Source: Candidatus Heimdallarchaeum aukensis (GTDB lineage Archaea > Asgardarchaeota > Heimdallarchaeia > Heimdallarchaeales > Heimdallarchaeaceae). Taken from it: DNA of 64,000 bases. Where the stretch lies: contig CP084166.1 of the NCBI GenBank assembly GCA_021513695.1, positions 1,344,001 through 1,408,000 of the forward strand, written 5' to 3'. Both the position numbers and the translations under genes were made by a program. Shown here in pieces: positions 4,876 through 41,854 of the stretch (position 1 is its first letter; each line of letters starts with the position of its first letter). Below the pieces are notes generated by a model. That model was not told the DNA's origin. It made no database searches and saw only the letters and a list, made by a program, of their open reading frames with translations.

Positions 4876-5563
4876 CTTCTTCTTTTTTTGATGATAAAAG
4901 GAGTGAACTTGACATCACAGCTCCCTCTTCAGATGAGGGTTTACAAAAACATATCTTATCTCCATCAGAGACAGCAATTAGTTTCTTTTCAGATGTCATC
5001 TTTGAAAGCACTTCCAATTCTATGGAACTCAATAACTTTTCGAGTTCACTTTTTCTCATTTCTTTATTCAACAATTTTTCTTCTACTTGTTTTTCTAAAC
5101 TCATAAGATCACCATAAGTTAATATTTCAGACTCAAGCTTTTTGTCTCGTCTTATATCCCAGAAATCGTATTTTTCATCAATTTTGGGTTTAATTGTCAG
5201 TTTTTCTGGTTTCTCAAGTTGAAATATAGAATAGGGGGATGTCTTTTTTCCTATTACAGAAATTAAAGGAGTGGCATTTTTTCTTACAAAATTAGAAAAA
5301 GACTTTATCCTACTTTTACTTTTCAGAATGTTTTCTAAATTAAGTTCTTCTCTAAGTTCATGCATTAAAATATAGTCTTCATAAACCTCTGCATCCAATA
5401 TTTTTTCTCTGTTTTGCATTAGATATTGATAAATGTCAGAAGTTTGTTCTCTATCCTTTTCTGACTCTTCAACAGATAATGAAATCTTCTTTTTTAATAA
5501 TTTCTTGTATTTTTTTTCAATTTCAAAAAGTGTAAGCAAGAGAACATCATAGTCTTCTTCCAT
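4868..5563 (-). CDS. Kleisin (ScpA)-like candidate immediately downstream of smc
   Basis: 231 aa. Its start overlaps the smc stop at the single base 5563. It is charged and helical. There is no strong motif and the call is mainly by synteny. Confidence 0.3.
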   Translation of the reverse strand: MEEDYDVLLLTLFEIEKKYKKLLKKKISLSVEESEKDREQTSDIYQYLMQNREKILDAEVYEDYILMHELREELNLENILKSKSRIKSFSNFVRKNATPLISVIGKKTSPYSIFQLEKPEKLTIKPKIDEKYDFWDIRRDKKLESEILTYGDLMSLEKQVEEKLLNKEMRKSELEKLLSSIELEVLSKMTSEKKLIAVSDGDKICFCKPSSEEGAVMSSSLLLSSKKEEDE

Positions 5564-8541: not shown

Positions 8542-10661
8542 AGTGGTATAATAGTAATATAGGTTATGCTATATAAACAATTCAATTTTCTCAAAAAATT
8601 ATAAAAAATTTAGAAAATCTAACAATAAAAAAAAGAAAAAAAGCTAAAATTTTAGAATTTAAATTTTAAACTTCTTTTTGATAGTGATTATAGTAGCAAC
8701 AACTAGGATTGAACTTAGAGAGACATATACTAGATCAAGTGATCCTATTCTTCGTGTTTTGTCTTGTCCACCAGTGTAAATGTCTGCTCCAGCACTTGAA
8801 CCAGTTGAGGTAGATTCACCATAATCTTCCCATGTATCTGCTTCTTGTGTTGTACCATCCATGTTCAATAGTACTGCAGAGGTTTCTCCTCCGCCACCAT
8901 TTTCACCTAGTTCATTTTCAAATCTACTGTCATAAATAACTTGAGCTCCAGGTAAGAAACATCCATTACTGGTGAGGAACATCCAATGCATGGTAATCGT
9001 TACAGTTTCATCAGGAGCAAGTGTTATACCTTCAAATTTTATTAATCCCATTCCTAAATAAGTTGTATTTGAAGTGGTACCTTCAGTTGTAACTTGGAAC
9101 ATTAATTCAAGTTCAGAAACATTGTAGTATTGAATGACAGTGATATGTGTTTCTGATTCACCAATGTTGGTAATAACAAGTTCTACTTCCAACTCCCAAG
9201 GAGCGTTTTCAGGAATAATGATATCAACATTTGTAACTATATCAAGTATTGGTTGTGGGAATGCTGGTTCCATTGCAGCTTCTTTAGGTAGCAATAAAGC
9301 CCAAGCCATGTTTGAAATAACTATTTCATGAGCTTCAGCTGCTCCTTCGAAGTAACCTACTTCATGAGTGAATGGGTTAACTACTTCTGCAGGACCTTGT
9401 CCTTCATCACTGATGAATTCTACAACAGCATAAACAGGGTGGATGCCTAAGAAAGTGTTTGCTTCAACTTCTACTTCGAATGTAACTTTTTCTCCAACAG
9501 CAACAGTACCTATTTCCTCTGTGTAGAATAGATCAGGATTTACTATTTGCCAAGTTCTATCCATAGCTCCATGGAATAGATAGAGTTTCACATTTGTAGC
9601 ATCAATGTTTCCTGTATTTTCAATATATCCAGTGATTGTAACATTATCTCCGACTTGGTAAGCTAGTTGATCTAACTCTACGTATGTGTTAAGTACAGCT
9701 TCATCGTCTGCAATCTGGAAGTTTATTCCATTACTGAATCCGAAGTACTCAAATCCTTCAGGATCGTTATACTTGAATCTTGCTCCAGCAGAAATCCAGA
9801 TATCTTCAGCATAGTCATAGAAACTGATGGGACGACCATAGGCGATTTGTCCAGCCCAATCAGAGAAACCTAGAATAACTCTCATAAGCTCATAGAAATC
9901 ATGTAATTCTGTTGTTAATCCTGCTGCTTTTGTTCCATCTCCATTGTCAATTGGATGTATGTACATCGAACCTAAAACCCAATTTTCATTAGGAATGTTT
10001 TCTAAAGCCCAACTAACTTGAGTCCAACTGTCAGGGTCTAAATTCTCTATTGTTGTCTCAAGATAATATTGAGTAACTATTTCTGTTCCAACAGTGACAT
10101 TTACTGGAACAATCTCAAAGTCCATTCCATTAAAGTCAAAAATTGTTTGGTTTTGATATAGTAAGTTGAACAGGTCTTTTGCTGCATTATCAATTCCATT
10201 TTTTAATTTATCCTTATAGTCTTCAAAAAGTGCATCCCAATCACCATTGTAGTCAGATATGGATATATTTGCTAGGAATTGAGTTGCTCTGTTTACCAAT
10301 ATGTTGCTTAATCCTTTAGACGAATTAAGTTTTACTTCAGTACTAACAGTATAAGATAAACTACCATATTGAATGGTTGTTGTTTCTGTTTTGACTGTTG
10401 CTTCAGTGATAGTTGGATCAATATCAACTAAGGAACCGTTATCATAAACATACCAACCTTCCAGTACCATCATTGTCTGGTTGTAGTTTTGGTATTCTTC
10501 TCCATCAACAGTAATTATTATACTAATATCTACAGGAATGTATTCGCTTTCATTGACGGTTACATCATCTCTCAATCTAAATATCGATGGAAGGTGACTG
10601 TAGAATTTCATGAAATCGCGACCTAGTGGATAGCTTATTGTAATGTTCTTTGCAGGTTCAG
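7924..10661. repeat. Tandem direct repeat, copy 1 (unit about 2738 bp). It contains the 5' 615 nt of smc, the smc/surface-protein intergenic region and the 3' about 2 kb of the surface-protein gene
   Basis: Base-by-base comparison with 10662-13400 shows identity throughout. The one exception is a poly-A length difference (A8 near 8611-8618 versus A7 at the corresponding site near 11349-11355). The ORF track confirms this: the 650 aa ORF equals the C-terminus of the 1015 aa ORF, and the 214 aa ORF shares its first 205 aa with SMC. Confidence 0.9.
8659..10611 (-). pseudogene. Truncated duplicate of the surface glycoprotein. It is the C-terminal 650 aa starting at an internal Met, has no signal peptide and keeps the C-terminal TM anchor
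   Basis: Identical in sequence to the C-terminal 650 aa of the 1015 aa ORF at 11396..14443. It lies inside repeat copy 1 and the upstream part of the gene is replaced by the duplication junction. Confidence 0.55.
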
Positions 10662-11279
10662 TTGATTTAACTTTTTCTTTGATTCAAAATATGATTGATA
10701 GATTTCATTTAGGCCTGTAGCAACAAGTAAAGTTTCTAGTTTTTTATGTGGAGAACCTTCAGCAAAAGCGTTTAAATATCCTTCTTCTGTGAAATTTAAC
10801 ATCGTATCTTCAAATATTCCTATTTGTTTCATGAGTGCTTGGATTTGTCTCTTTGTTACTATTCTTGAGCTTCCATCCAATGCCTTTATTTTCCTTACAG
10901 ATTGATTTTTTTTAATTTCAAGCTCCACAATAAAAGAATCCCTATTATTTACAAAAAGTTCAATATCTGGATCAGAAGATTGAAAAGGTCTCCTTTCACC
11001 CAACAAAGGGTTTGAAATGAAAAGTTGAATAACGGCAGAATCTCCAAAAGAACCAATTAATTCTTCTTTCTTACCGAGAGCTACTCTTGTGGGTGTATGC
11101 CCAATTACTAAAATTAAAGCTTCTAAAATTTGGCTTTTCCCGCTCCCATTAGCACCAGAAATGACAATTAACGGTTTTTCCATTAAATCTAATTCAGTAT
11201 ACTTATGCATTTTGAAATTTTTAATTACCAGTTTGTTGAAAACATACTTATTAGAACTTTCTGAATCAATAATTGTCAT
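10635..11279 (-). pseudogene. Truncated duplicate of the smc 5' end. The N-terminal 205 aa including Walker A are followed by 9 junction-derived residues (LNLQRTLQ) and a stop
   Basis: The first 205 aa are identical to SMC (5563..8541). The reading frame crosses the duplication junction at 10661/10662 and terminates. Confidence 0.55.
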
Positions 11280-13400
11280 AGTGGTATAATAGTAATATAG
11301 GTTATGCTATATAAACAATTCAATTTTCTCAAAAAATTATAAAAAATTTAGAAAATCTAACAATAAAAAAAGAAAAAAAGCTAAAATTTTAGAATTTAAA
11401 TTTTAAACTTCTTTTTGATAGTGATTATAGTAGCAACAACTAGGATTGAACTTAGAGAGACATATACTAGATCAAGTGATCCTATTCTTCGTGTTTTGTC
11501 TTGTCCACCAGTGTAAATGTCTGCTCCAGCACTTGAACCAGTTGAGGTAGATTCACCATAATCTTCCCATGTATCTGCTTCTTGTGTTGTACCATCCATG
11601 TTCAATAGTACTGCAGAGGTTTCTCCTCCGCCACCATTTTCACCTAGTTCATTTTCAAATCTACTGTCATAAATAACTTGAGCTCCAGGTAAGAAACATC
11701 CATTACTGGTGAGGAACATCCAATGCATGGTAATCGTTACAGTTTCATCAGGAGCAAGTGTTATACCTTCAAATTTTATTAATCCCATTCCTAAATAAGT
11801 TGTATTTGAAGTGGTACCTTCAGTTGTAACTTGGAACATTAATTCAAGTTCAGAAACATTGTAGTATTGAATGACAGTGATATGTGTTTCTGATTCACCA
11901 ATGTTGGTAATAACAAGTTCTACTTCCAACTCCCAAGGAGCGTTTTCAGGAATAATGATATCAACATTTGTAACTATATCAAGTATTGGTTGTGGGAATG
12001 CTGGTTCCATTGCAGCTTCTTTAGGTAGCAATAAAGCCCAAGCCATGTTTGAAATAACTATTTCATGAGCTTCAGCTGCTCCTTCGAAGTAACCTACTTC
12101 ATGAGTGAATGGGTTAACTACTTCTGCAGGACCTTGTCCTTCATCACTGATGAATTCTACAACAGCATAAACAGGGTGGATGCCTAAGAAAGTGTTTGCT
12201 TCAACTTCTACTTCGAATGTAACTTTTTCTCCAACAGCAACAGTACCTATTTCCTCTGTGTAGAATAGATCAGGATTTACTATTTGCCAAGTTCTATCCA
12301 TAGCTCCATGGAATAGATAGAGTTTCACATTTGTAGCATCAATGTTTCCTGTATTTTCAATATATCCAGTGATTGTAACATTATCTCCGACTTGGTAAGC
12401 TAGTTGATCTAACTCTACGTATGTGTTAAGTACAGCTTCATCGTCTGCAATCTGGAAGTTTATTCCATTACTGAATCCGAAGTACTCAAATCCTTCAGGA
12501 TCGTTATACTTGAATCTTGCTCCAGCAGAAATCCAGATATCTTCAGCATAGTCATAGAAACTGATGGGACGACCATAGGCGATTTGTCCAGCCCAATCAG
12601 AGAAACCTAGAATAACTCTCATAAGCTCATAGAAATCATGTAATTCTGTTGTTAATCCTGCTGCTTTTGTTCCATCTCCATTGTCAATTGGATGTATGTA
12701 CATCGAACCTAAAACCCAATTTTCATTAGGAATGTTTTCTAAAGCCCAACTAACTTGAGTCCAACTGTCAGGGTCTAAATTCTCTATTGTTGTCTCAAGA
12801 TAATATTGAGTAACTATTTCTGTTCCAACAGTGACATTTACTGGAACAATCTCAAAGTCCATTCCATTAAAGTCAAAAATTGTTTGGTTTTGATATAGTA
12901 AGTTGAACAGGTCTTTTGCTGCATTATCAATTCCATTTTTTAATTTATCCTTATAGTCTTCAAAAAGTGCATCCCAATCACCATTGTAGTCAGATATGGA
13001 TATATTTGCTAGGAATTGAGTTGCTCTGTTTACCAATATGTTGCTTAATCCTTTAGACGAATTAAGTTTTACTTCAGTACTAACAGTATAAGATAAACTA
13101 CCATATTGAATGGTTGTTGTTTCTGTTTTGACTGTTGCTTCAGTGATAGTTGGATCAATATCAACTAAGGAACCGTTATCATAAACATACCAACCTTCCA
13201 GTACCATCATTGTCTGGTTGTAGTTTTGGTATTCTTCTCCATCAACAGTAATTATTATACTAATATCTACAGGAATGTATTCGCTTTCATTGACGGTTAC
13301 ATCATCTCTCAATCTAAATATCGATGGAAGGTGACTGTAGAATTTCATGAAATCGCGACCTAGTGGATAGCTTATTGTAATGTTCTTTGCAGGTTCAGTT
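10662..13400. repeat. Tandem direct repeat, copy 2 (2737 bp). The novel junction is at 10661/10662 with tt microhomology
   Basis: As above. Sequence after 13400 (cctgtgtttg...) and before 7924 (...gttctcgttgca) is unique. Confidence 0.9.
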
Positions 13401-14443
13401 CCTGTGTTTGTAACGTTGTAATCCATTTGTAATATTCCTTGAGTATTTAGCAAGTCTTGATCATAAGCCATGTTTACAGCTACTCTGGGTGCAGAACTTA
13501 ATTCATTATAGTTAATGTTAAACACTACTTCAAAGTTGCTTGATGTTAATCTTACATACCAAGGATTCTGCATTACCCAATCCATTTTTCCAGTTATTTG
13601 TGGTGCAAAGTTATCAGTATCTGGTGAAATTGATATGGGATTGATTGTATATGGGAATCTGAATTTGACTACTGAGAATGTTTCATATGCTGGGTCATCA
13701 AATATTGTTACTTCTTCTCCAAATAAATTGTTCGTTGATAAAGTATATTCGCCACCTGATGAAACGATAGCATCTGGATCAACATAAGAAATAGCTCTTA
13801 TTGCTCCTTTGCCCATGTATTCTCCAACAGCTACAGCTTTTACTGGTGATGCTACAACATCTGCTGGATCTACAACTGATAAGAATCCTGTAGCAATATC
13901 TGTTTGCATTTCTCCTATAAGATCAGTAAAGACTGCGTCTGTGATTCCACCTGTAAACTTGTAAACGTAGGTTCCATATTCAGTTGTAAGTGCTCCAGAC
14001 CAATAAAGGTCTATACCATAATAATCACTGAATGCAGCAGCAATTGTCAGAGCTTCTTCTAAACTCTGTTCTGCTGTTAATGTTTTCACTAATTCAAGAG
14101 CTAATGTAGCATTTTCAGGAGCTCGATATGGTCTCCTCACGAGATAATCATGGTAGCCATCTTGATCAGTTACCACAAAAATCCAATTGATGACGTTATC
14201 CATCAAACTTTCTGGAGTTATCTTTAGTGCTGAAGGACCTCCAACAGTAGTAATTTTGACCAAAGCAGCGGTGTCAATACCAGCAACTATCTTCATTTCT
14301 TCATAAAATAATGAAGATAAAGTCTTGGTACTTGCAGAATCAAATTGATCTGCTGCACCTAATGCTTGGGTGTAAGAACCACTAAAAGTTAACAATATTA
14401 AAGCTAACCCCATTGTCATAACAATAGACATTTTATTTTTCAT
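11396..14443 (-). CDS. Large secreted cell-surface (glyco)protein, 1015 aa, with signal peptide, numerous N-glycosylation sequons, a Gly-rich linker and a C-terminal TM anchor
   Basis: The N-terminus MKNKMSIVMTMGLALILLTF is a signal peptide. There are more than 25 NxS/T sequons. GENGGGGETS is followed by a C-terminal LDLVYVSLSSILVVATIITIKKKFKI anchor. Confidence 0.65.
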   Translation of the reverse strand: MKNKMSIVMTMGLALILLTFSGSYTQALGAADQFDSASTKTLSSLFYEEMKIVAGIDTAALVKITTVGGPSALKITPESLMDNVINWIFVVTDQDGYHDYLVRRPYRAPENATLALELVKTLTAEQSLEEALTIAAAFSDYYGIDLYWSGALTTEYGTYVYKFTGGITDAVFTDLIGEMQTDIATGFLSVVDPADVVASPVKAVAVGEYMGKGAIRAISYVDPDAIVSSGGEYTLSTNNLFGEEVTIFDDPAYETFSVVKFRFPYTINPISISPDTDNFAPQITGKMDWVMQNPWYVRLTSSNFEVVFNINYNELSSAPRVAVNMAYDQDLLNTQGILQMDYNVTNTGTEPAKNITISYPLGRDFMKFYSHLPSIFRLRDDVTVNESEYIPVDISIIITVDGEEYQNYNQTMMVLEGWYVYDNGSLVDIDPTITEATVKTETTTIQYGSLSYTVSTEVKLNSSKGLSNILVNRATQFLANISISDYNGDWDALFEDYKDKLKNGIDNAAKDLFNLLYQNQTIFDFNGMDFEIVPVNVTVGTEIVTQYYLETTIENLDPDSWTQVSWALENIPNENWVLGSMYIHPIDNGDGTKAAGLTTELHDFYELMRVILGFSDWAGQIAYGRPISFYDYAEDIWISAGARFKYNDPEGFEYFGFSNGINFQIADDEAVLNTYVELDQLAYQVGDNVTITGYIENTGNIDATNVKLYLFHGAMDRTWQIVNPDLFYTEEIGTVAVGEKVTFEVEVEANTFLGIHPVYAVVEFISDEGQGPAEVVNPFTHEVGYFEGAAEAHEIVISNMAWALLLPKEAAMEPAFPQPILDIVTNVDIIIPENAPWELEVELVITNIGESETHITVIQYYNVSELELMFQVTTEGTTSNTTYLGMGLIKFEGITLAPDETVTITMHWMFLTSNGCFLPGAQVIYDSRFENELGENGGGGETSAVLLNMDGTTQEADTWEDYGESTSTGSSAGADIYTGGQDKTRRIGSLDLVYVSLSSILVVATIITIKKKFKI

Positions 14444-22829: not shown

Positions 22830-24647
22830 TTATCTCTTTTTTTTCCAAAAGAAAATTATTACACTGAGTGCAAAAATTGAAAATGTCCATGCAAATGGAG
22901 TTGTTTGTGTTGTTTCTTCTTGTAATTCGATTGAAAAGATTACAGAAACAGTATAATTGTTTCCAGCTTTGTCAGTTACAGTAATCTTGGCCTCGAAATC
23001 TCCAGAAGAAATATACTGATGAGCAGCTGAATATGAATTTGTTGCATTCCAGACCGTTCCATCTCCCCAGTCTATGTAGACATAGGCTACACCAAAGTTG
23101 TCTTCATAATTAAAGAATAGTTCTACATAACCATCGGTGCTTTTGGATATAGAAGTATTAGTTGATTTAGGATCTATTGAAAGCGTTGGATTTTCTAAAT
23201 CTATATAGATTAAACTAGAAATATTCTCTGACGTACCAAGTGTTGTTTCAACGTATAAAGACACATTATACACTTCTGATTCATTGGCAAAACTATGAAC
23301 AGTCGACATTTTTTCAAAATCAGTTATATTCTCTGTGTTTCCATCACCAAAATTGAAAAATATTTCAGAGATATCTCCCTTTGCTAGTTGAATTGTATAG
23401 TTGAAGGTAATTGTATTGTAGTTAAAGTATGTTTGACTACGAGGTAAGAGAGTCAATTTAGGCTTTGAGTCATATATTTGTAACTCGTGGAATTCCCCTT
23501 CTGTTTCATTGTATTGTTCACCATAGTATAAATTAAATGCTCGGAAATAAACCACATTTCCTACATTGAACTTACCTAAATTAAATCTATATTCACGTAT
23601 TGTATCATTCCACCCATCTGAATTAGTAACATTTGTTTCATTTATTAAAACACCATTAGTTAAATCAGTCAAAGGAACAATCTCTGTTCGATTTGTTTCG
23701 CTTTCCTCAACTTTGTAGCTTATTCCAAATTCATCATTCTTTGTTTCATTTAAAGTTTGTAAAATTACAATTACATCGTCAATATCTGTGTAATAATCAC
23801 TTTCTTCAGGGTATGATTCAAAGTTAAAACCATTTTGTAATCTATATATTTGCAGTTCTCCTGTTTCTGCATTCAAATCCCATCCAGCAGAATTATTTGC
23901 AGCAAAATAGATCATTCTTTCAGTGAGATTAAAAGATATTGTATAAACAGGAAAGCCTGTTCCAGTATCATTAGTTTCATAGTCCATTTCAAGGAAGGTT
24001 ACTCCTTCATAATTAGTTAAGTTTGCATTAGAAATTCTATCTCTATAAACAGAGAGAGCTAATGTAACCTTATCTGCTGGATTTCCATTTCTTACAATAT
24101 ATTTTAATGTGATTGTTTGATTAAGTTCAGCTAAAAATGCATTAGTACCAACTTTTGGTAATGAGATTATATCTTCGTCAAGATATGGAGGATGTATGCT
24201 GTTACGAGCATAAATGTAGTGCCATGCATCCATATGATTAAAGACTGGTAAATCTTCATAAGTTCCGTTTGTAATCTCTCCACTCCATGCATATCCTTTG
24301 AACTTTGTATTCTCTGTTAGATTAAAGACTCCGCTATAGTAGGATAGATCTCTATAGGAATGAGAATAATTTAGCGCTAATGCTGAATTTAAATCGGTTG
24401 TTAAACCTGAGCCTTCACCAACAAGAAATACTCCATCAATACCAGCGAATCTTGGAACTGTATAATTTACTGTAATCAATGTTCCATTTTCAATAGAAAA
24501 ACCTGCGGGAGTATATTCCTTTAACTTTGGTGCAGGAACATTGTTCGCTGAGATTTTAATTGTTTGGTTAAATACAACCATCATTGATAATGAAATAACT
24601 AATACAAGTATCAACGTACCTTCTTTTCTCTTGTTCATACTCTTCAC
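22830..24647 (-). CDS. Secreted cell-surface protein with two PKD domains, many N-glycosylation sequons and a C-terminal TM anchor
   Basis: Signal peptide. FNFGDGNTE and IDWGDGTVWNATNSYSAAHQY...ITVTDKAGN are PKD WxFGDG motifs. C-terminal anchor FAWTFSIFALSVIIFFWKKKR. Confidence 0.65.
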   Translation of the reverse strand: MKSMNKRKEGTLILVLVISLSMMVVFNQTIKISANNVPAPKLKEYTPAGFSIENGTLITVNYTVPRFAGIDGVFLVGEGSGLTTDLNSALALNYSHSYRDLSYYSGVFNLTENTKFKGYAWSGEITNGTYEDLPVFNHMDAWHYIYARNSIHPPYLDEDIISLPKVGTNAFLAELNQTITLKYIVRNGNPADKVTLALSVYRDRISNANLTNYEGVTFLEMDYETNDTGTGFPVYTISFNLTERMIYFAANNSAGWDLNAETGELQIYRLQNGFNFESYPEESDYYTDIDDVIVILQTLNETKNDEFGISYKVEESETNRTEIVPLTDLTNGVLINETNVTNSDGWNDTIREYRFNLGKFNVGNVVYFRAFNLYYGEQYNETEGEFHELQIYDSKPKLTLLPRSQTYFNYNTITFNYTIQLAKGDISEIFFNFGDGNTENITDFEKMSTVHSFANESEVYNVSLYVETTLGTSENISSLIYIDLENPTLSIDPKSTNTSISKSTDGYVELFFNYEDNFGVAYVYIDWGDGTVWNATNSYSAAHQYISSGDFEAKITVTDKAGNNYTVSVIFSIELQEETTQTTPFAWTFSIFALSVIIFFWKKKR

Positions 24648-26098: not shown

Positions 26099-26257
26099 CA
26101 TCTTTTTGTAAATCTTAATAAATGATATTTACACATTATTACTAAAGAGGAATGGTGATATATTCTGCAATTCAAAAGAAGTGACGTTTTTAACTTAGAG
26201 TCAATTGAAGTTTCTCTACCAATAAGATTTCGAAATATAATTCTAAAGAAGCTTTAT

Positions 26258-28228
26258 TTGTTCCGAGAACTAAATGTTCAAAAAATTGCAGAACAACTAA
26301 CAATTGTCCCAGAAGAGATTAAAGAATACATACGCTTTCTTATTCAAAGCATGGTTTTGAGAGGTTTTTATAAAAAAGAAACATTTTATGTAAATGCTTT
26401 TTATTTGTGGCCATTTGTTGAATCAGTAAATTTTAATGAAAGTCAGTATATAATTATGGGGTTATTGTCTTCGAGAAGAGTTATGCCTTTTACAGATGTA
26501 GCTAATTTTTTAAAAATAACTAAAGAGCAATTAATAGCACAACTAGAGACTTTAATTTATCATGGAGTTGTAATTTGTTACATTAAAAGAAATAAAATAA
26601 TTACTGACTGGCTATGGAGACCACCAGATGAAATTAAAGTCTCTGAACAAGATGTTCATATAATTGGAACTGCAATGATGCTTAGAAAAGCTAAAATCAA
26701 AGATATTGCTAAATTTTTAAAATATTCTGAAGAAGAAGTTGTCCAGAAAATTTCTAAATTGCTACTTTTTAGAAAGGTAGAAGCTGAATTTATCCTTAAA
26801 ACTAAATTTTTTGCTAAAGATACCATATCAATTATTGTTAGAAAATTCATTATTCAACCAGAAAAGAAAGAACTGAGCTTACTTCCAGTAAACGAAAAGG
26901 AAATCATAGGATTTCTTTTATTAACAAAAAAAGCGAAGTTAAAATCGATAAGCCGATTTATAGAAAAACCAATTAATGAAACAGTAAAACTACTAGCTTC
27001 ATTAACAGCAAAAGGAACATTTCAATTCATTTTTTCATCAAAGAAAACAGTTAGCCCCGTTATAATACCAGATATAAAACCTAAAAGAACTATTGAAGAA
27101 ATGGCTTCATTATCTTTCTTTAACTATGAAGCATTGTTAGGTATGTTAACTACAAGAAAGAGGATAAAAGTCAAGAAACTCTCTTTTTGGATGAATAGAG
27201 AAGACGACGAAATAATCGAGGCATTAATTAACTTATATTTGGAAGGATTCATTTCATGTACTTTGGTAAAGAAGGTAGTATATATTGAAGGGATATATCA
27301 ATATAGTAGAACACAAGAGGGAAGTTTAGAACGGTGGGAAAAAATAATTCTAGGAATGGTTATAGCTAAAACCATAATCTCTGTAAAAGATATTAGTAAA
27401 TCATTTGGTACTGATAAACTTATAGCACGTGAAAAACTGTATTCTTTTTATGGAAAGGGTCTAATAAAAGGAGAACTACATGATTTTAGAATTAATACAA
27501 AATTAATTCCAGAGGAAATTCCTGTGTTTCCTCCTTTGAATCAAATCGAAGATTTTCCAATTCACTATCAAGAAATTTTTGGATATATTATTTCAAATAT
27601 TACTGTAAACGTTTCAAAAATGGCTAAAATATGGAACAAAAGCAAAAACGCGATTAAAAATATTATTTATGAATTAACAGGGGCTGGTGTAATTAATGTC
27701 ATACAAAATCGTAACGTCTTTATTCTACAATCAGCTCAAAAATATTATCCAACACAAGAAATAAACGCTTTAGGACATGAATATGTTCAGATTATAAATG
27801 AAATTGAAAAAAGCAGGAGAAGAAGAGTAAGAATTGAGCACATTCAAAAACGAGTAAACATCCCTCAGATCGATATTTTCAAGATTATTTGTCAATTATT
27901 AGCTCATGGCTACTATAGAGGAACAATTTCTGAAAAAGTTTTTATTAGAAAAGGAAAGCTTATTGTTCCTGTTGGCAAACTCAAATGCTATTACTGCGGA
28001 CATACTATAGAAGACAGTCACCTATCATGTCCAAATTGTTCAAAGGCACAACCATTGTGTATCATCTGTAACGGGTTAATAAAAAGAGGACAAGAAGTTC
28101 TAGAATGTCCCAATTGTGAAAATGTTGGACATAAAGAACATATGCGAAAATGGATTTCTATAAAGGAAGAATGCCCAATTTGTAAAACTCAAATATCAAA
28201 GAGAAATCTAATAGAAAAAGTAGCGTAA
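26258..28228 (+). CDS. Multi-winged-helix protein (about 8 tandem ~60-70 aa WH-like repeats) with a C-terminal zinc ribbon plus a RING-like cross-brace candidate
   Basis: Recurrent units are visible, for example IYHGVVICYIKRNKIITDWLW, LLLFRKVEAEFILKTKFFAKD, LTAKGTFQFIFSSKKT, YLEGFISCTLVKKVVYIEG, YGKGLIKGELHDFRIN, TGAGVINVIQNRNVFILQ and LLAHGYYRGTISEKVFIRKG. The C-terminus is CYYC...CPNC...CIIC-x11-CPNC-x4-H-x2-H-x10-CPIC. Confidence 0.45.
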   Translation: MFRELNVQKIAEQLTIVPEEIKEYIRFLIQSMVLRGFYKKETFYVNAFYLWPFVESVNFNESQYIIMGLLSSRRVMPFTDVANFLKITKEQLIAQLETLIYHGVVICYIKRNKIITDWLWRPPDEIKVSEQDVHIIGTAMMLRKAKIKDIAKFLKYSEEEVVQKISKLLLFRKVEAEFILKTKFFAKDTISIIVRKFIIQPEKKELSLLPVNEKEIIGFLLLTKKAKLKSISRFIEKPINETVKLLASLTAKGTFQFIFSSKKTVSPVIIPDIKPKRTIEEMASLSFFNYEALLGMLTTRKRIKVKKLSFWMNREDDEIIEALINLYLEGFISCTLVKKVVYIEGIYQYSRTQEGSLERWEKIILGMVIAKTIISVKDISKSFGTDKLIAREKLYSFYGKGLIKGELHDFRINTKLIPEEIPVFPPLNQIEDFPIHYQEIFGYIISNITVNVSKMAKIWNKSKNAIKNIIYELTGAGVINVIQNRNVFILQSAQKYYPTQEINALGHEYVQIINEIEKSRRRRVRIEHIQKRVNIPQIDIFKIICQLLAHGYYRGTISEKVFIRKGKLIVPVGKLKCYYCGHTIEDSHLSCPNCSKAQPLCIICNGLIKRGQEVLECPNCENVGHKEHMRKWISIKEECPICKTQISKRNLIEKVA

Positions 28229-28252: not shown

Positions 28253-28996
28253 CTAATTTTTCTTTTTCACGTACTTATCAGAAACTATAGTACCATCATG
28301 CATTGTAATTTGCCTTTGAGCTAGTTTTGCTTGTTTTGTGTTATGTGTTACAAAAATTAATGTTTTTTCTTTCTCTTTTGCGATATCCAGTAATAGATTC
28401 ATTATACTATTTCCAGTTTTACTATCTAGATTACCAGTTGGTTCGTCTGCCAATATTATTTTTGGGTCATTTGCTAAGCTTCTAGCTATAGCAACTCTTT
28501 GCTGTTCTCCTCCTGACAGTTGATCTGGTTTATGATCTCCTCTTTCTTCTAGTCCAACTAATTCCAATAATTCTTTAACCCTTTTTTTCCTAAATTCTTT
28601 TGGTTTTTTTGCGAGTATTAAAGGCATTTCAATATTTTTTGCAGCATTAAGTTCTTCTAATAAGTTAAACTGTTGAAAAACATATCCCAAAGTGTCTCTT
28701 CTTAAACGACTTAATTCTTTTTCAGAGAGAGCAGCTAAATTTTTTCCTTCAATAAAAATTGACCCCTTATCAGGATAATCCAAAGCACCAATTAGATTTA
28801 AGAGTGTAGTTTTACCACTTCCAGACATTCCTACTATTGATATTATTTCGCCTTCATTAATTGATAAGTTAATATTTGATAATGCATTAACAACAGTATC
28901 TCCTAATCTATATCGTTTATGCAAGTTTTTAATGACCAAAATGTGCTTTCCATAAGTAGTTTCTTCATTTGGTTTTTTCTTCATTATCTGAAACAT
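28253..28996 (-). CDS. ABC transporter ATP-binding protein (MacB/LolD-like family). It is orphan, with no permease adjacent
   Basis: Walker A is GMSGSGKTT. The signature is LSGGEQQRVAIARSL. Walker B is IILADEPTGNLD. H-loop is VTHN. Confidence 0.85.
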   Translation of the reverse strand: MFQIMKKKPNEETTYGKHILVIKNLHKRYRLGDTVVNALSNINLSINEGEIISIVGMSGSGKTTLLNLIGALDYPDKGSIFIEGKNLAALSEKELSRLRRDTLGYVFQQFNLLEELNAAKNIEMPLILAKKPKEFRKKRVKELLELVGLEERGDHKPDQLSGGEQQRVAIARSLANDPKIILADEPTGNLDSKTGNSIMNLLLDIAKEKEKTLIFVTHNTKQAKLAQRQITMHDGTIVSDKYVKKKN

Positions 28997-29339
28997 CTAA
29001 ATCTCTCTCTTTACGCACATTATTTAATTTTTCTCTTGGAAATCGGTCTTTCATTATTTTGAGTTCTTCCATCCATGCTTTCTCTAGATCGACATCTAAA
29101 ATCAAAGAAAGTTGCAATAGTAAAGTGAATGATTGAGCCAATTCTCTTTGTAGATCATGTTTATTAGGTTTTTTATGTCCCATTGATTCTGTCTTATATT
29201 CTATATCAAAAAGGATGTGCTTTCCTACTTCACCAAGTTCTTCGATTAAATGAATAAAAACTGCATGTGCCGGAAAGTTCAACCAATCTCTTTGAATCAA
29301 AAATTCTCTTAATTCATTTATAATTTCTTTGAATTTCAT
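28965..29339 (-). CDS. MazG-like nucleoside triphosphate pyrophosphohydrolase (small all-alpha NTP-PPase). It overlaps the ABC ATPase gene by 32 nt
   Basis: 124 aa. IEELGEVGKH carries the EExxE metal-binding motif. It is helical and acidic. Confidence 0.5.
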   Translation of the reverse strand: MKFKEIINELREFLIQRDWLNFPAHAVFIHLIEELGEVGKHILFDIEYKTESMGHKKPNKHDLQRELAQSFTLLLQLSLILDVDLEKAWMEELKIMKDRFPREKLNNVRKERDLDVSDNEEKTK

Positions 29340-33003: not shown

Positions 33004-33387
33004 ATGAGTATCTCTGGTCGAGAAATGGAAAAATTGCTACAAGAGTTTTCTGACAATACAGAAGGAGTTTTAGGCTGTTCTATCATCCTTGCAAAAGATG
33101 CTTTAATGTTAGCTGAAATCTCTCAGAAATATGATAGTATGGTAATTCAATGGCTAAGTGAACGTATTTTATCTATGGCAAAAGAATCACTTAAGCAGTT
33201 AATGAACGATTACCAATTACAAAGCGTAACTATTGAAGAAGAAAATCATCTAATTTTTCTGAGACCAGTAGGAACAGAATATTATCTCGTTTTTATTCTA
33301 AATAAGGAAGAAAATAGAGGTTTAATTGAATATAATATAAAAAGACTTCAAAAGAAGTTTAGTAAAGCATTAGGAATACAAGAATAA
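33004..33387 (+). CDS. Roadblock/LC7 (MglB-like) domain protein
   Basis: 127 aa. GVLGCSIILAKDALMLAEI...QLQSVTIEEENHLIFLRPVGTEYYLVFILNKEENRG is the typical roadblock pattern. Confidence 0.55.
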   Translation: MSISGREMEKLLQEFSDNTEGVLGCSIILAKDALMLAEISQKYDSMVIQWLSERILSMAKESLKQLMNDYQLQSVTIEEENHLIFLRPVGTEYYLVFILNKEENRGLIEYNIKRLQKKFSKALGIQE

Positions 33388-33846: not shown

Positions 33847-35982
33847 ATGGTGTTTGAAATTAGTATTACATGTCCAAAATGTAAGGGAAAAGGAAAGATA
33901 CATAAAGAAAAGACTACATGTCCTGCTTGTTATGGTGTAGGAAAAACTTCTTTTTCCTTGAGTGGTAAAGGCGTAGAAGGAGATATTTGCAAAAAATGTA
34001 AAGGGACTGGAAAAATCACAACTTATGAGAAATGTCCAGTATGTAACGGAAAAAGAACAGTATTCATATGTAAGAATTGTAAAAGTATAATGAAAGCTCC
34101 AAGTAGATCAGGATTATGTCCTGCTTGTGAAATACAAAAAAAGCCCATAGTTTACAAATTGCGCCCACCAATAGATTCACAACTTATTAGGAATGGTATG
34201 GTCTTTATAGGAAGAGTAGACCAGATCAAGAATTTTGGAGTTTTTGTTAAACTAGCTGAAGATGCTAAAGTTTTAATAAGAAAAGAAGATATGAGCGACG
34301 AATATGCTTGGGATTTAGGAGAGGAAGTCCAAGTCAAAATCAAAAATGTTAGCGATTCTGGCAAACTTTACGGTAAGTCCGTAAACATAAAAGATTACTC
34401 TCTGTTACCAATTAGAGGAAGAGTAAGAGCTGTCCAAATCAAAGATATAACACATGAAAGAGTGGGAGCATTTTTGTCATTTAAAGCTCAAGTTGTATCT
34501 ATTTTACAAACTTCTGGACCAACTAGATTTACTTTTGCAGATGCTACTGGTTCAATAAACGGTGCAGCATTTATAAAAGCAGGAGAAAGAGCTTTTCCTG
34601 AAATCGTTGAAGATATGGTCGTAGAATGTTTTGGAGAAGTAACAGAGTTTAGAGATTCATTACAGATCGAAATTCAAGACATTGAAGCTCTTGAAGAAGA
34701 AGAAACAAAGAAATTGTTAAATGAAATTGAAATTGCTTTGGATAAGAAAGCAACTCCAGCAAAATTAGATTTTTCTGTTAAATCAGAAATACTTACAAAA
34801 TTAAAACCAGATATTATTAAAGCAGCAAAAAGAATAAGAAAAGCAATTTTTACAGGGCAACCAATTTATATCAGACATCATGCAGATGCAGATGGTGTCG
34901 TAGCAGGTTTCTCGGTACAACAAGCTCTTATCCAGTTGATGGAAGAAGAAGGATATGATGCCGATACAATAAGAATTAGAATAAAAAGACTTCCTAACAA
35001 ACCACCATTTTATGATCCCATTGATGTTGTTAAGGATTTAGATTTTGCTTTAGCAGATAAAGAAAGATTTGGAGATAAACTGCCTTTAATTATTTGTTTA
35101 GATTTTGGTTCTTCATTAGAATCTATTCTTCCATATTTACAGATAAAAGCATTAGGTCTAGAAATAATTGTAGTAGACCATCATTTTCCTGATAAGAAAA
35201 TAAGAGAAATTGTCGATCTTCATATCAACCCTTATTTTGTAGGAGGAGGTTATGAGATTTCTGGGGGAATGTTAGGTTATGAACTTGCAAGATTCATACA
35301 CCCTACGATCATCACTGATTCGATGAAACATTTACCAGCCATTGCAGGACTTATGGATAGAGTTGAAGGAGACGAGATAAAAGAATATATTAAGTTAGCA
35401 AAGGAAAAGGGCTATTCAGAAGAAGACTTGAAGACAATAGGTATTGCTGTAGATTATGAATTATACCAATTAAAATTTAGTGAAGGAACAAATTTGATGA
35501 AAATTCTATTTGGAGTAGACACCGACATAGAATGGCATAAGCAAATGTACAAAATCTTGGGTGAAGAAGCGAAAAAGTTGATGGATAATACTCTAAAAAG
35601 TGTGCTTCCACATGTTAAACAAAAGACTCTAGAAAATGATGTCTTATTAACTCAAATTGATGTTGAACTTTTTTCACACAGATTTACATTTCCTAATCCA
35701 GGAAAAATTACAGGAATGGTTTTTGATCACTTTGTTGAGAACAATGAAGACAAGCCCGTAGTTACACTTGGTGAAGGTCCTGATTTTCTCATTTTACGTT
35801 CTAAAGGGTTAGCTATCAACTTTCCTGAAGTTGTAAAGTTGATGCAAGAGAAAATACCTGAAGCTGATGTTCAAGGAGGAGGACATGAAGTTGTGGGTTC
35901 ATTAAAATTCTATGAAGGAACAAGAGAGAAAGTGCTTAACTTTTTCATTAAATATTTGGCCAAATCCTCTCTTGCTCTTTAA
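33847..35982 (+). CDS. RecJ/Cdc45-like DHH-family nuclease carrying an N-terminal DnaJ-type CxxCxGxG zinc finger, a zinc ribbon and two OB folds
   Basis: The N-terminus has CPKCKGKGKI, CPACYGVGKT, CKKCKGTGKI and CPVCNGKRT (4 CxxCxGxG motifs), followed by CKNC...CPAC. An S1/OB-like segment is GMVFIGRVDQIKNFGVFVKL. DHH motifs are RHHADADG, CLDFGSS and VVDHHFPD. The DHHA1 motif is VQGGGHE. Confidence 0.7.
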   Translation: MVFEISITCPKCKGKGKIHKEKTTCPACYGVGKTSFSLSGKGVEGDICKKCKGTGKITTYEKCPVCNGKRTVFICKNCKSIMKAPSRSGLCPACEIQKKPIVYKLRPPIDSQLIRNGMVFIGRVDQIKNFGVFVKLAEDAKVLIRKEDMSDEYAWDLGEEVQVKIKNVSDSGKLYGKSVNIKDYSLLPIRGRVRAVQIKDITHERVGAFLSFKAQVVSILQTSGPTRFTFADATGSINGAAFIKAGERAFPEIVEDMVVECFGEVTEFRDSLQIEIQDIEALEEEETKKLLNEIEIALDKKATPAKLDFSVKSEILTKLKPDIIKAAKRIRKAIFTGQPIYIRHHADADGVVAGFSVQQALIQLMEEEGYDADTIRIRIKRLPNKPPFYDPIDVVKDLDFALADKERFGDKLPLIICLDFGSSLESILPYLQIKALGLEIIVVDHHFPDKKIREIVDLHINPYFVGGGYEISGGMLGYELARFIHPTIITDSMKHLPAIAGLMDRVEGDEIKEYIKLAKEKGYSEEDLKTIGIAVDYELYQLKFSEGTNLMKILFGVDTDIEWHKQMYKILGEEAKKLMDNTLKSVLPHVKQKTLENDVLLTQIDVELFSHRFTFPNPGKITGMVFDHFVENNEDKPVVTLGEGPDFLILRSKGLAINFPEVVKLMQEKIPEADVQGGGHEVVGSLKFYEGTREKVLNFFIKYLAKSSLAL

Positions 35983-38655: not shown

Positions 38656-41484
38656 GTGATTGCAATCAAAAAAATTTCTTGTACTATTATTCTTGTTTTA
38701 TTATTAAGTTCAGAGGTATATGGGACAATATATAACAATCAAGCAGAACAAGAAGAAAATAAAGAAAAAATGGATTTTACTAATCTTAAAAACATATTTA
38801 AAGAAAAGCAATTGTTAGAAGAATTCAATAAAGCACCAAGAAATCAAGATTTCAGGTTATTTATCAAACCAAGAAATTATGATTCAAGAATAATTTTACT
38901 TGATAAAGGTAGAAGAGCAAATCCAATTTCAATAGTTAATGGACTTTTTGCAACATATACTAAAGCAGAATTATTAAATTTAATTAATAGAGGTTTAATA
39001 TTTTCTGTCTGGAATAATAGTCAGATCATGATAGCAGATTCTGAAATAAATGTATCATCCTCACTTGTTCAAAACACTGCTAACTTCACAGAAATGATAA
39101 ATACAACAACATTATGGAAAAATAATATTAAAGGAGATAATGTCACAGTAGCTATTCTTGACACGGGGATATTGAAAAATCACCCTGCATTAAACACAAC
39201 ACAAGATGGAAAAAATAGAATTATCGCAACAAGGAATTTTTTTGATGAAGATTCGTATCCAACTGACAACAATGGACATGGTTCAGCATTAGCAGGAATT
39301 ATTGGGAGTAATGGTCTTTTTGGCTATCCTATAGGCGTTTCTCCCAATTGTAATTTCATAATAGGTAAAATCTTGACTAACGAAGGTCAAGGTACATTAG
39401 AAACTTTGCTTTCTGGGATGGATTGGGCAATTAGCCAAGGAGCGGACATTATCAACCTCTCAATAGGAAAAAAAGTTGAAAGCCTTCATGCTCCAGAAAT
39501 AGAAGCAGTAAATAATGCAGTAAATAAAGGTGTAATTGTAGTTAGCGCTGTTGGTAATTCAAGAGGTAAATTAGAATTTGGATATAACTCTAAATACACA
39601 GTTCTTAGCCCTGGAATAGCTAGCAATGTAATAACTGTTGGTGCAATTGATACAAATGAAGTTTTATACGAATTTAGTAGTGGAGGGCCAGTGACTATCA
39701 ATTTTAACGAAACTGAAGGAAAATATCTCTATGATTTCCAAGATGTGGATTACTGGATAAAACCTGATATTGTAGCTCCTGGAGTTAAAATTAATACAAC
39801 AACAAATTCTTTAGATTCAACAAAAATAGTAACAGGTACTAGTTATTCCACTGCTGTAGTATCAGGATTATGTGCGCTAGTTTTATCAAAAAACAAGGAA
39901 TATAAGCCATCAATAATAAAATCAGCAATTTTGAATAGCGCAACGAAATTAGAAAACAACCTAATATTTAGCTCTAATTCAACTATTAAAATAATCCCTG
40001 ATATTTTTTATCAAGGTGCAGGATTAGTTAATGCGGGTCATACTTTAGATGAATTAGAAAACATTCAAGATTTCACAATATGGCCTGCAGATTTTTCATT
40101 TTTAGATAAAAAATTATTCATTAACGAAAAAAAGCAGTTCTATATTAGTTTATTCATAAATAGACCCATTGAACATCTAACAATAAACATTGAGGGAGAT
40201 ATAAATAAAGGATTAACAATAAGCAATTTAGACACTTTAAACTCTAGTTCTATAGGACAATATAACCTTGCTTTTTTGATTGATGGTGAGAAATTTTCTT
40301 CAGGAATTCATAAAGGGGAAATAACCTTTGTCTCATCCGTATTAAACATAACCTTATCTCTACAAATAAATATCATTAATGCAAAAGGAAAGGTTTTAGT
40401 AGACTTTTTTGAGAAAAGTCCTATTGATTATTATTCATTAAAAGGGACTTTAACTAGCCTAGTAAGGACTTTACGAAAATTACAATTAGTTACTTCTTTT
40501 CTTAGAAGAGATATTGAGCAAAGAACATTATCTAGTCTAAACCTTTTAGACTATGATTTAATTATCTTAATCAATCCTAATGGATCTACAGAATTAAGAG
40601 ATTATTACTCAAATAGTGATTTAGAAGCTCTAAAAGACTATGTGCTACCTAGAGGAAATTATAAAGGAGGAAGTCTTTTAATTTTACCTTCACAATCAAG
40701 TGACTTCAATTTTATAGCTAACTTAACAAGTTTATTCAAAATCTCTCTTAGTCAAACAGAAATCGAAGAAGAATTTTTTGAATTTGGTTTCACGACTGGT
40801 CAGTTATTTTCATTTCCCAATGAAATAAGTGAGTTTTATATTCCAAAACCATTCATTGTAAAAGGAGAAAATAGTTCAGTAAAAAATTATGAAAACCGCT
40901 TTGCTTATGTAGATAACAGATATGGTGGAGGTTCACTCGTTTTTGTAGCTAATAACGTTGATATGTTTCTCTCATCTCCATACTTATACTCAACTACTAG
41001 TGAAAAATATATTACAACTCGATTTTCTTCAAAATACGGAAACAATACAAAACTCCTTGAAAACATAGTTTATACATGTAGACCTAATTACATACTGACA
41101 TCCGTTGAAACGGATAAAAAGGAATTCATAAAGAATGAAAAAATAACGTTAAAAATTTCTCTTAAAAATTATCACAAATATATTTCAGGATGGACTTTTA
41201 CTATTACTTTGGAAAATGAACAGACTTACATGGTTCCTTCATTCCAATACGTTGATCTTGAAAATGGTTCATATTTCTTGATTATAGATATAGAAAAGAA
41301 TAATATTAAACCTGGTCATTACTCTTTAGTTGTAAGGTCTTTTGCAGGAAATGAAAAAATTGAGGTAAACATTATAACTAACTTCTCTCTTACTCCAAGA
41401 TTCGTTGAAATTCCTCTCATTGTATGCGTTATTATAATTATATATACCCAAACCAAAAAAAGAAGAGTGAAGATTAAGAAATAG
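38656..41484 (+). CDS. Secreted subtilisin-like serine protease (peptidase S8) with a long C-terminal extension and a TM anchor
   Basis: The catalytic triad context is VAILDTGI (Asp), HGSALAGIIG (His) and GTSYSTAVVSG (Ser). It has a signal peptide and the C-terminal anchor IPLIVCVIIIIY followed by KKRRVKIKK. Confidence 0.85.
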   Translation: MIAIKKISCTIILVLLLSSEVYGTIYNNQAEQEENKEKMDFTNLKNIFKEKQLLEEFNKAPRNQDFRLFIKPRNYDSRIILLDKGRRANPISIVNGLFATYTKAELLNLINRGLIFSVWNNSQIMIADSEINVSSSLVQNTANFTEMINTTTLWKNNIKGDNVTVAILDTGILKNHPALNTTQDGKNRIIATRNFFDEDSYPTDNNGHGSALAGIIGSNGLFGYPIGVSPNCNFIIGKILTNEGQGTLETLLSGMDWAISQGADIINLSIGKKVESLHAPEIEAVNNAVNKGVIVVSAVGNSRGKLEFGYNSKYTVLSPGIASNVITVGAIDTNEVLYEFSSGGPVTINFNETEGKYLYDFQDVDYWIKPDIVAPGVKINTTTNSLDSTKIVTGTSYSTAVVSGLCALVLSKNKEYKPSIIKSAILNSATKLENNLIFSSNSTIKIIPDIFYQGAGLVNAGHTLDELENIQDFTIWPADFSFLDKKLFINEKKQFYISLFINRPIEHLTINIEGDINKGLTISNLDTLNSSSIGQYNLAFLIDGEKFSSGIHKGEITFVSSVLNITLSLQINIINAKGKVLVDFFEKSPIDYYSLKGTLTSLVRTLRKLQLVTSFLRRDIEQRTLSSLNLLDYDLIILINPNGSTELRDYYSNSDLEALKDYVLPRGNYKGGSLLILPSQSSDFNFIANLTSLFKISLSQTEIEEEFFEFGFTTGQLFSFPNEISEFYIPKPFIVKGENSSVKNYENRFAYVDNRYGGGSLVFVANNVDMFLSSPYLYSTTSEKYITTRFSSKYGNNTKLLENIVYTCRPNYILTSVETDKKEFIKNEKITLKISLKNYHKYISGWTFTITLENEQTYMVPSFQYVDLENGSYFLIIDIEKNNIKPGHYSLVVRSFAGNEKIEVNIITNFSLTPRFVEIPLIVCVIIIIYTQTKKRRVKIKK

Positions 41485-41854
41485 CGTTTCTTATATCAGA
41501 AGCATATCTTGCTAGAACTTGCATGGATAATGCAAGACTGTAGATTTCTCTTGAAGCTGCTAAAGTTATTACTTCTCCAGTATTTTGGAGTATGACAAAA
41601 CCCTCTCTTCCTTTTATAATAACTTGGTCTAATTCTCCATACTTTAATTGGGTGACAGTTTGCATTCCTGCAGCATTCAAAGCAGAAGCTAAAGCTGCCA
41701 TAATAACTGAATCAGTTCCTTGTTCTGCAAAAAAAGCTAATTCTTGTCCTTCTGAGGTTACTACTGCTATAGCACCAAGATCACATTTCTTTGTTATCTG
41801 TTTAAGTATCTGAATTACTGCTTTTTTTTGTTCGGGTGTTAAATCTGTAATCAT
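41474..41854 (-). CDS. Roadblock/LC7 (MglB-like) domain protein
   Basis: 126 aa. LGAIAVVTSEGQELAFFAE...LDQVIIKGREGFVILQNTGEVITLAAS is the roadblock pattern. Confidence 0.55.
   Translation of the reverse strand: MITDLTPEQKKAVIQILKQITKKCDLGAIAVVTSEGQELAFFAEQGTDSVIMAALASALNAAGMQTVTQLKYGELDQVIIKGREGFVILQNTGEVITLAASREIYSLALSMQVLARYASDIRNAIS

Follow-up and report, generated by a model that had tools for sequence, protein, structure and literature searches.

Eight predicted winged-helix domains joined to a zinc ribbon and a RING: a candidate E3 ligase family of Heimdall-group Asgard archaea

Few known archaea are as closely related to eukaryotes as the Heimdallarchaeia, which include the Hodarchaeales. 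To our knowledge, the archaeal RING-type ubiquitin ligases (E3s) that have been investigated are small, and their genes lie in operons with those for ubiquitin, an activating enzyme (E1) and a conjugating enzyme (E2). The RING E3s of Caldiarchaeum and the Helarchaeia work with a eukaryote-like E1 and E2 (PMC5654768; bioRxiv 10.1101/2023.07.25.550441), and a functional Asgard cascade of E1, E2 and RING has been reported with the small RING E3 of the Helarchaeia (bioRxiv 10.1101/2023.07.25.550441). Here, we describe a gene of different design in a 64,000-nucleotide stretch of the Candidatus Heimdallarchaeum aukensis genome (contig CP084166.1, positions 1,344,001 to 1,408,000 of the forward strand), which we call the window. 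This gene, WH8-RING, encodes a protein of about 688 residues in which eight predicted winged-helix (WH) domains are followed by a C4 zinc ribbon and a RING. With moderate confidence, we regard it as a Heimdallarchaeia-specific RING-type E3 ligase whose built-in WH scaffold docks a substrate or a large assembly. What is new is the family and its architecture, RING E3s in Asgard archaea as such being already known. Literature searches returned no description of an eight-WH zinc ribbon-RING family, and a Foldseek search of the PDB returned no solved structure that matches the whole array or shares the combination of eight WH domains, ribbon and RING.

The domain architecture was read from an AlphaFold2 model of the 688-residue protein, built with a 42-sequence alignment of the family, which has a mean predicted local distance difference test (pLDDT) score of 89.2 and a predicted template modelling (pTM) score of 0.70. 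Its secondary structure consists of exactly eight successive WH units of the order helix-strand-helix-helix-strand-strand (H-E-H-H-E-E), then the C4 zinc ribbon, and then the RING. A preliminary description of the window, made from the sequence alone, had counted about eight tandem WH-like repeats, and the predicted structure gives them both that number and that fold. The gene and its WH domains are listed below by window position; residues are numbered on the 688-residue protein, and subtracting 32 converts them to the numbering of the shorter open reading frame (ORF) of 656 residues discussed later.

26162..28228, + strand: revised gene, 8xWH-zinc ribbon-RING, about 688 residues; probable start ATT 26162 or CTG 26165, stop 28226-28228
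26213..26413, + strand: predicted WH1, residues 18-84 (H-E-H-H-E-E 21-80); basic, family mean net charge +5.8
26429..26620, + strand: predicted WH2, residues 90-153 (H-E-H-H-E-E 93-151); hub of the profile similarity between repeats
26636..26854, + strand: predicted WH3, residues 159-231 (H-E-H-H-E-E 162-229); long beta-hairpin wing
26879..27067, + strand: predicted WH4, residues 240-302 (H-E-H-H-E-E 243-299); invariant TxxGxFQxxF motif
27113..27301, + strand: predicted WH5, residues 318-380 (H-E-H-H-E-E 322-378); preceded by a highly conserved linker, 303-317
27323..27517, + strand: predicted WH6, residues 388-452 (H-E-H-H-E-E 391-450); invariant FxGKxxIKG motif
27551..27742, + strand: predicted WH7, residues 464-527 (H-E-H-H-E-E 467-525)
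27767..27958, + strand: predicted WH8, residues 536-599 (H-E-H-H-E-E 539-597); basic, weak Pfam PCI/HTH_27 match

The C-terminus reads CYYC-x10-CPNC, x6, then CIIC-x12-CPNC-x4-H-x2-H-x10-CPIC, which gives the ligand pattern C-x2-C-x10-C-x2-C, x6, C-x2-C-x12-C-x2-C-x4-H-x2-H-x10-C-x2-C. Among the 41 family members with a C-terminus present, none of the twelve ligands varies. The inventory of C4 followed by C4H2C2 in the preliminary description thus stands, with its spacers of x12 in the ribbon and x11 in the RING corrected to x10 and x12. The two zinc modules are placed as follows.

27977..28048, + strand: C4 zinc ribbon, residues 606-629; ligands C609, C612, C623 and C626, invariant; weak Pfam Zn_ribbon_3 match
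28052..28201, + strand: predicted RING, residues 631-680; ligands C633, C636, C649, C652, H657, H660, C671 and C674

In the AlphaFold2 model, short beta-strands surround the first four cysteines and a beta-beta-alpha unit surrounds the last eight ligands. Among PDB sequences, the family profile hits ARK2C/RNF165 and Arkadia in their RING-H2 domains (E 3e-6 to 1e-5) and, more weakly, RNF24, RNF38, RNF126, EL5 and RLIM. The HMMER alignment to RING-H2, which makes RING a better description than the PHD-type finger also raised earlier, for which no Pfam model matched, equates C633 and C636 with ligands 1 and 2, C652 with ligand 3, H657 and H660 with positions 5 and 6, and C671 and C674 with ligands 7 and 8. 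Where canonical RING-H2 domains have the His that serves as fourth ligand, the family has a nearly invariant Asn (N654); two residues ahead of the third ligand it has an additional, invariant Cys (C649). The predicted zinc sites are therefore likely to be C633/C636/H657/H660 and C649/C652/C671/C674, interleaved as a cross-brace.

The final 93 residues were also modelled on their own (pLDDT 79), and this model was searched against the PDB with Foldseek. Its last 54-60 columns superpose on the RINGs or U-boxes of Rad18, TRIM37, Ring1B/Bmi1, Prp19 and the Prp19 chain in 9dtr at 1.7-2.4 Å; the RINGs of RNF4, RNF38 and TRAF6 are also matched, at larger root-mean-square deviation (RMSD; 3.8-10 Å). 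Between the two folds that the preliminary description had set against each other, these superpositions support a predicted cross-brace RING rather than two independent ribbons. The residues I/V635 (after the first Cys), W664 (four after ligand 6), P672 (after the seventh ligand) and K675 (after the eighth) are invariant or nearly so and align with the equivalent positions of RNF165; from established RING biochemistry, we take I635, W664, P672 and K675 to be the E2-contact and 'linchpin' positions. The Pfam model zf-RING_2 is matched at E<=0.01 by 41 of the 42 members, and Prok-RING_1 by 24.

The ribbon and RING taken together have a second set of relatives. The best structural match of the whole zinc ribbon-RING model is the C-terminal domain of WDR19 of IFT-A (3.6 Å over 82 columns), and MIOS, WDR24 and WDR59 of GATOR2 follow at 22-32% identity and an RMSD of 5.4-7.7 Å; these IFT-A and GATOR2 matches cover both ribbon and RING over 73-88 columns at 20-32% identity. 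In sequence, the family profile weakly matches the MIOS C-terminal domain (E 8e-4) and WDR19. The C-terminal RINGs of GATOR2 and IFT-A act as structural junctions and are not known to be ligases. On this model, the zinc ribbon and RING would be a structural interaction cassette in the style of GATOR2/SEA and IFT-A, joining the protein to a larger complex with no ligase activity. In Asgard archaea and Bathyarchaeia, many large surface proteins of the Ig-like type end in the same cassette, which speaks in favour of such a role. The E2-contact residues and the basic residue after the last cysteine are nevertheless invariant, active RING-H2 ligases give the strongest matches in sequence, and the RMSD to the GATOR2 domains is worse than that to the catalytic RINGs. 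We therefore give a purely structural role little credence.

The WH units are related to one another in more than fold. When the eight were excised and compared profile to profile, they aligned in register (P 4e-8 for WH2 with WH4, 5e-7 for WH2 with WH5 and 1e-6 for WH2 with WH6); the repeats are thus kin in sequence as well, consistent with an origin by internal duplication. The units resemble PCI-type and transcription-factor WH domains. The Pfam PCI model is matched by 23 of the 42 family members (best 3e-12; 16.3 bits for the window protein alone, below the cut-off of 22), and there are weak Pfam and NCBIfam matches to Lrs14, TrmB, MarR and TFIIE. PCI-type WH domains usually serve protein-protein contacts. 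WH4-WH7, with the linkers between domains, form the most conserved part of the array (column conservation 0.69-0.94) and are near neutral in charge, while WH1-3 and WH8 are basic (family mean net charge +3.4 to +5.8). The isoelectric point (pI) of the protein is 9.5, against a window median of 6.6, which places it, like TFIIB, DinB and primase, among the window's basic proteins.

These properties bear on whether the protein might instead be a DNA- or chromatin-binding regulator. Its WH domains would then bind DNA as do those of the MarR/TrmB/TFIIE type, of TFIIIC and of the Mga/SarS arrays, and its zinc modules would serve oligomerization or nucleic-acid contact. The high pI and the weak Lrs14, TrmB, MarR and TFIIE matches fit such a regulator, as do a structural match to TFIIIC tauB and a paralogue in which the array is fused to an Mrr-type nuclease (both described below). 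Set against them, the most conserved units and linkers are the near-neutral ones, the WH units most often match PCI-type models, and the invariant canonical E2-contact residues are hard to square with a purely structural or DNA-binding role. A regulator of this kind is unlikely in our judgement, but the two roles are not exclusive, and an E3 docked on DNA would be compatible with both.

The architecture is kept across a well-defined group of proteins. The homologues recovered by a word-indexed search fall into about 45 clusters at 90% identity; each is full length and shares 44-86% identity with the query. Their taxon labels, where present, read Heimdallarchaeaceae, Heimdallarchaeota or 'Asgard group', in keeping with the Asgard-like host that had been raised as a possibility. 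A few of these homologues already carry the automatic names 'E3 ubiquitin protein ligase' or 'RING finger domain-containing protein'. When 1.84 billion representatives were searched exhaustively with HMMER, 42 proteins scored at E<1e-30; most have 680-700 residues and align from end to end, and those with labels are Heimdallarchaeota or Hodarchaeota/Hodarchaeales. A member of a deeper clade (P0062) has the same architecture at 25% identity over 521 residues. Because it is kept at 44-86% identity, and at 25% in the deeper clade, the architecture is not a chance pattern. The family, with about 45 such clusters and some 40 representatives of greater divergence, is restricted to Heimdall-group Asgard archaea, every named member being from the Heimdallarchaeota, Heimdallarchaeaceae or Hodarchaeales.

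The two halves of the protein also occur apart. About 1,600 further HMMER matches cover the zinc ribbon-RING cassette only; in the sample examined, it forms the C-terminal end of large proteins that contain Ig-like, TSP3, FG-GAP or CARDB domains. The hosts of these cassette-only proteins (P0088-P0194, profile positions about 596-685) are Freya-, Loki-, Kari- and Heimdallarchaeia and Bathyarchaeia. Conversely, among proteins of the Hodarchaeales and related metagenomic proteins, paralogous WH arrays carry an Mrr-type nuclease where the RING would be (P0073, from the Hodarchaeales), an N-terminal multi-pass membrane region (P0075), an N-terminal resolvase plus helix-turn-helix (P0072), or a zinc ribbon and RING (P0059). 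Found with such differing effector and end domains, the WH array looks like a reusable targeting module.

Searched against the PDB with Foldseek, the full model matched a UFL1-DDRGK1 chimera first (E 1.6e-6), followed by TFIIIC tauB chains (8ffz_B, 9gc3_A), UFL1 on the 60S subunit and the four-WH tail of SelB; Pol III subunits, STK19, JetB, ESCRT-II and ScpB were matched more weakly. As the template modelling (TM) score is about 0.1 throughout, these matches reflect local runs of WH domains and not a common overall shape. The UFL1 lead was tested directly, since the origin of UFL1 and DDRGK1 has been placed in Asgard archaea (PMC10183829) and Ufm1 homologues have been reported from nine Asgard clades (PMC12962969). 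If the protein were an archaeal relative of UFL1 acting with DDRGK1, its WH arm would lie on the ribosome and position an E2 for a UFM1-like modifier, and its RING would be an ancestral feature that was kept. A divergent family member (P0079; family homology E 3.5e-38, 24% identical to P0008 over 71% of its length) does pass the threshold of the Pfam model E3_UFM1_ligase (PF09743; 25.5 against 23.2 bits), but its score is built up from weak WH matches, and no one stretch is significant by itself. The same model is matched marginally by one of the 42 close members, and P0075 weakly matches DDRGK.

The direct comparisons gave no such link. The window protein has no match to PF09743 even at E<=10, and a homologue search seeded with P0079 returned only itself and one family member. 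Alignment of the family profile with human UFL1 residues 1-389 by hhalign gave E 0.5 and a probability of 0.1 (the UFL1 query is identical to PDB 8ohd_A at 793 of 794 residues), BLASTP of P0079 against UFL1 was not significant, and the PDB sequence searches returned no UFL1 chain. Membership of the UFL1 family is therefore not established, and UFL1 itself has no RING; we consider such a relationship quite improbable and the resemblance to be one of kind, a PCI-like WH chain serving as the body of an E3. A broader proposal, which strikes us as equally speculative, is that the WH8-RING family and divergent relatives such as P0079 represent the archaeal stock of UFL1 and DDRGK1. UFL1 would then be a tandem-WH RING ligase that lost its RING, and the archaeal proteins, docked on the ribosome or on some other large assembly, would transfer ubiquitin or a UFM1-like modifier.

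Several other WH families were considered and set aside. The ESCRT-II or cullin flavour suggested in the preliminary description was not borne out: no Pfam model of ESCRT-II (Vps22/Vps25/Vps36) or cullin matched at E<=10, the ESCRT-II structure 2zme was a weak Foldseek match (E 0.014, TM about 0.1), and there are no ESCRT genes near the gene in the window or in the relatives' loci. A kite protein of the Nse1 kind would have two WH domains rather than eight; no Nse1 model is among the Pfam matches listed, ScpB and JetB are only weak Foldseek matches, and no SMC or kleisin gene is adjacent. The model consists of WH units with no helical-repeat solenoid, which sets it apart from the PCI-domain proteins of the proteasome lid, CSN and eIF3. 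A search for anti-phage defence genes with PADLOC gave only weak generic winged helix-turn-helix matches to Csa3/CARF tails.

Taken together, the evidence leads us to favour a RING-type E3. In the mechanism that we envisage, the RING, stiffened by the adjacent zinc ribbon, would recruit an E2 charged with ubiquitin or a ubiquitin-like protein and activate discharge of the thioester. The eight PCI-like WH domains would form a long, fairly rigid arm that supplies targeting. The conserved core (WH4-WH7 and linkers) and the basic ends (WH1-3 and WH8) would dock a substrate or a nucleic-acid-containing assembly, such as chromatin/DNA or the ribosome, and proteins held at the docking site would then be modified. 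We infer the ligase activity, as well as the modifier, the substrate and the ligand of the array. The pI of 9.5, the basic terminal WH domains and the Mrr-nuclease paralogue incline us toward docking on DNA/chromatin or a ribosome-like assembly; that PCI-type WH domains more often mediate protein contacts speaks against docking on nucleic acid.

Several observations weigh against the ligase. The nearest structural relatives of the ribbon-RING module are the GATOR2 and IFT-A C-terminal domains. The window protein alone falls under the Pfam gathering score for every model, with 21.6 bits against 27.3 for zf-RING_2, and the pairing of zinc ligands is itself inferred because AlphaFold2 models carry no zinc. 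No result points to a substrate. Ubiquitin, E1 and E2 homologues had been proposed as neighbours to look for; there are no genes for ubiquitin, E1, E2 or a JAB-type or other deubiquitinase in the 64-kb window, among all ORFs of at least 120 residues and the intergenic small ORFs, nor are ubiquitin, E1, E2 or deubiquitinase genes conserved beside the gene in the relatives' loci.

The extent of the gene differs from that given by a mechanical ORF listing of the window (G+C about 31% along its whole length), which starts it at a TTG codon. This ORF had been taken as the complete protein; it is real, but the family homologues of about 691 residues extend some 35 residues further at the N-terminus. 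The features at the 5' end are as follows.

26258..28228, + strand: ORF as listed, TTG start, 656 residues
26154..26159, + strand: GGTGAT, a putative Shine-Dalgarno-like motif 2 nt before the ATT; identical in L007
26115..26123, + strand: TTAATAAAT, a putative TATA-like A/T-rich promoter element, read from the sequence; block kept in L007

The frame of the ORF is open 5' of the TTG up to a TGA at 26156-26158, and the N-terminal homology of the family runs in frame through this interval; the stretch YILQFKRSDVFNLESIEVSLPIRFRNIILKKLYL aligns to the family consensus LSFEREDVYNLDFxELxLPExxLSKxKxxxILxxLYLYR. In the locus of an 86%-identical relative (L007), the codon at the position of the TTG is CTA, and the 32 upstream codons differ by 10 synonymous and 3 non-synonymous changes. 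No in-frame ATG, GTG or TTG occurs within these 32 codons. Given the upstream homology, the CTA in L007 and the mostly synonymous changes, the true start is probably the non-AUG codon ATT 26162 (or CTG 26165), about 32 codons 5' of the TTG, for a protein of about 688 residues. The 60 nt further upstream, including the GGTGAT and the A/T-rich box, are nearly identical in the window and L007. An ATG-GTG at 26152, out of frame, overlaps the in-frame stop in both; production of the N-terminus by frameshifting from this ATG is a less parsimonious explanation than initiation at ATT or CTG. The gene thus apparently lacks a canonical start codon, and gene callers have shortened the proteins of this lineage to 656 or 625 residues.

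The WH8-RING gene looks monocistronic and vertically inherited. In the Heimdallarchaeaceae the order is a PKD surface protein on the opposite strand, glutamine synthetase, the WH8-RING gene, a protein of about 105 residues and an ABC ATPase; in the deeper clade it is PdxS, PdxT, the WH8-RING gene, a PKD protein and a large S8 protease, and in some other relatives the neighbours are unrelated. Stable synteny suggests a vertically inherited core gene. The PKD proteins of both clades are orthologous (25% identity, E 6e-37), with a different orientation in the deeper clade, so that this neighbour is as old as the divergence of the gene itself; the adjacency may reflect either a functional link or no more than ancient synteny. 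In the window, the PKD protein (22830-24647, - strand; 605 residues) has many N-glycosylation sequons and a C-terminal membrane anchor. The pair of small protein and ABC ATPase is inverted in the window and L007 (in the window 28253-29339, - strand: a 247-residue ABC-type ATPase, with no permease gene beside it, and a 124-residue protein), whereas in other Heimdallarchaeaceae it lies downstream of the WH8-RING gene on the same strand.

Several relatives (L001-L003, L009) have JAB/MPN (Prok-JAB) genes at a distance of 4-8 kb from WH8-RING. These genes are not consistently adjacent to it, and we regard their proximity as synteny and not linkage. L003 also has a ThiS-like gene of 66 residues after primase genes. 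Neither JAB nor ThiS-like genes occur at the corresponding places in the window, and no DDRGK1-like gene adjoins the WH8-RING gene in the loci examined.

Elsewhere in the window, a 992-residue SMC/Rad50-like ATPase (5563-8541, - strand) and a 214-residue ORF matching only the N-terminal SMC head (10635-11279, - strand) each adjoin a large Ig-like/CARDB protein (8659-10611 and 11396-14443); the pair may be a partial duplication. Two genes (33004-33387, + strand; 41474-41854, - strand) encode Roadblock/LC7 domains, a typical eukaryote-signature family of Asgard archaea. The window also encodes a 711-residue protein with a DnaJ-type zinc finger and S1/OB and DHH domains (33847-35982), and a 689-residue protein with two PLD-like nuclease/phosphodiesterase domains and a lamin-tail domain (45424-47493, + strand).

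The family bears on how the eukaryotic ubiquitin system gained large, substrate-specific E3 ligases. In contrast to the small operon-encoded archaeal E3s, this is a protein of about 690 residues with class-wide vertical inheritance, in which a RING of eukaryotic type is joined to an eight-domain PCI-like WH scaffold. Should it prove active, 'big' E3 architectures that target substrates would already have been present in the archaeal lineage, and the protein would offer a tractable means of asking which proteins an Asgard cell ubiquitylates. Its likeness to UFL1 and to the GATOR2 and IFT-A C-terminal domains provides testable leads on the origin of those eukaryotic modules.

The comparison with known systems summarizes where the family stands. 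With the RING-H2 ligases RNF165/ARK2C, Arkadia and RNF38 it shares the cross-brace eight-ligand spacing, the Trp-bearing helix, the CPxC(K/R) end and the hydrophobic residue after the first Cys; it differs in being C4H2C2, with Asn in place of the fourth-ligand His, an extra Cys two residues before the third ligand and His rather than Cys as ligand 6, and in the fused C4 zinc ribbon and eight WH domains that precede the RING. GATOR2/SEA (MIOS, WDR24, WDR59) and IFT-A (WDR19, IFT122) likewise have a zinc ribbon directly followed by a RING, but carry a beta-propeller and alpha-solenoid upstream where the archaeal family has WH domains. UFL1 binds UFC1 through an N-terminal helix. With DDRGK1, it offers the top Foldseek match and the same use of a PCI-like WH chain as the body of an E3. 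It has no RING and a partial WH completed by DDRGK1, against a RING and eight complete WH units here, and there is neither detectable sequence homology nor a superposable overall geometry (TM about 0.1). Nse1, the kite subunit of Smc5/6, also has WH domains followed by a C-terminal variant RING, and its motif has the same C-x2-C...C-x2-C-x4-H-x2 spacing, whereas archaeal kites lack a RING according to a study of SMC complexes (bioRxiv 10.1101/2024.01.07.573240). Finally, the RING E3s of Caldiarchaeum and the Helarchaeia are, like this one, archaeal RINGs; they are short and lie inside Ub/E1/E2 or ESCRT clusters, in contrast to a stand-alone protein of about 690 residues with a large WH scaffold.

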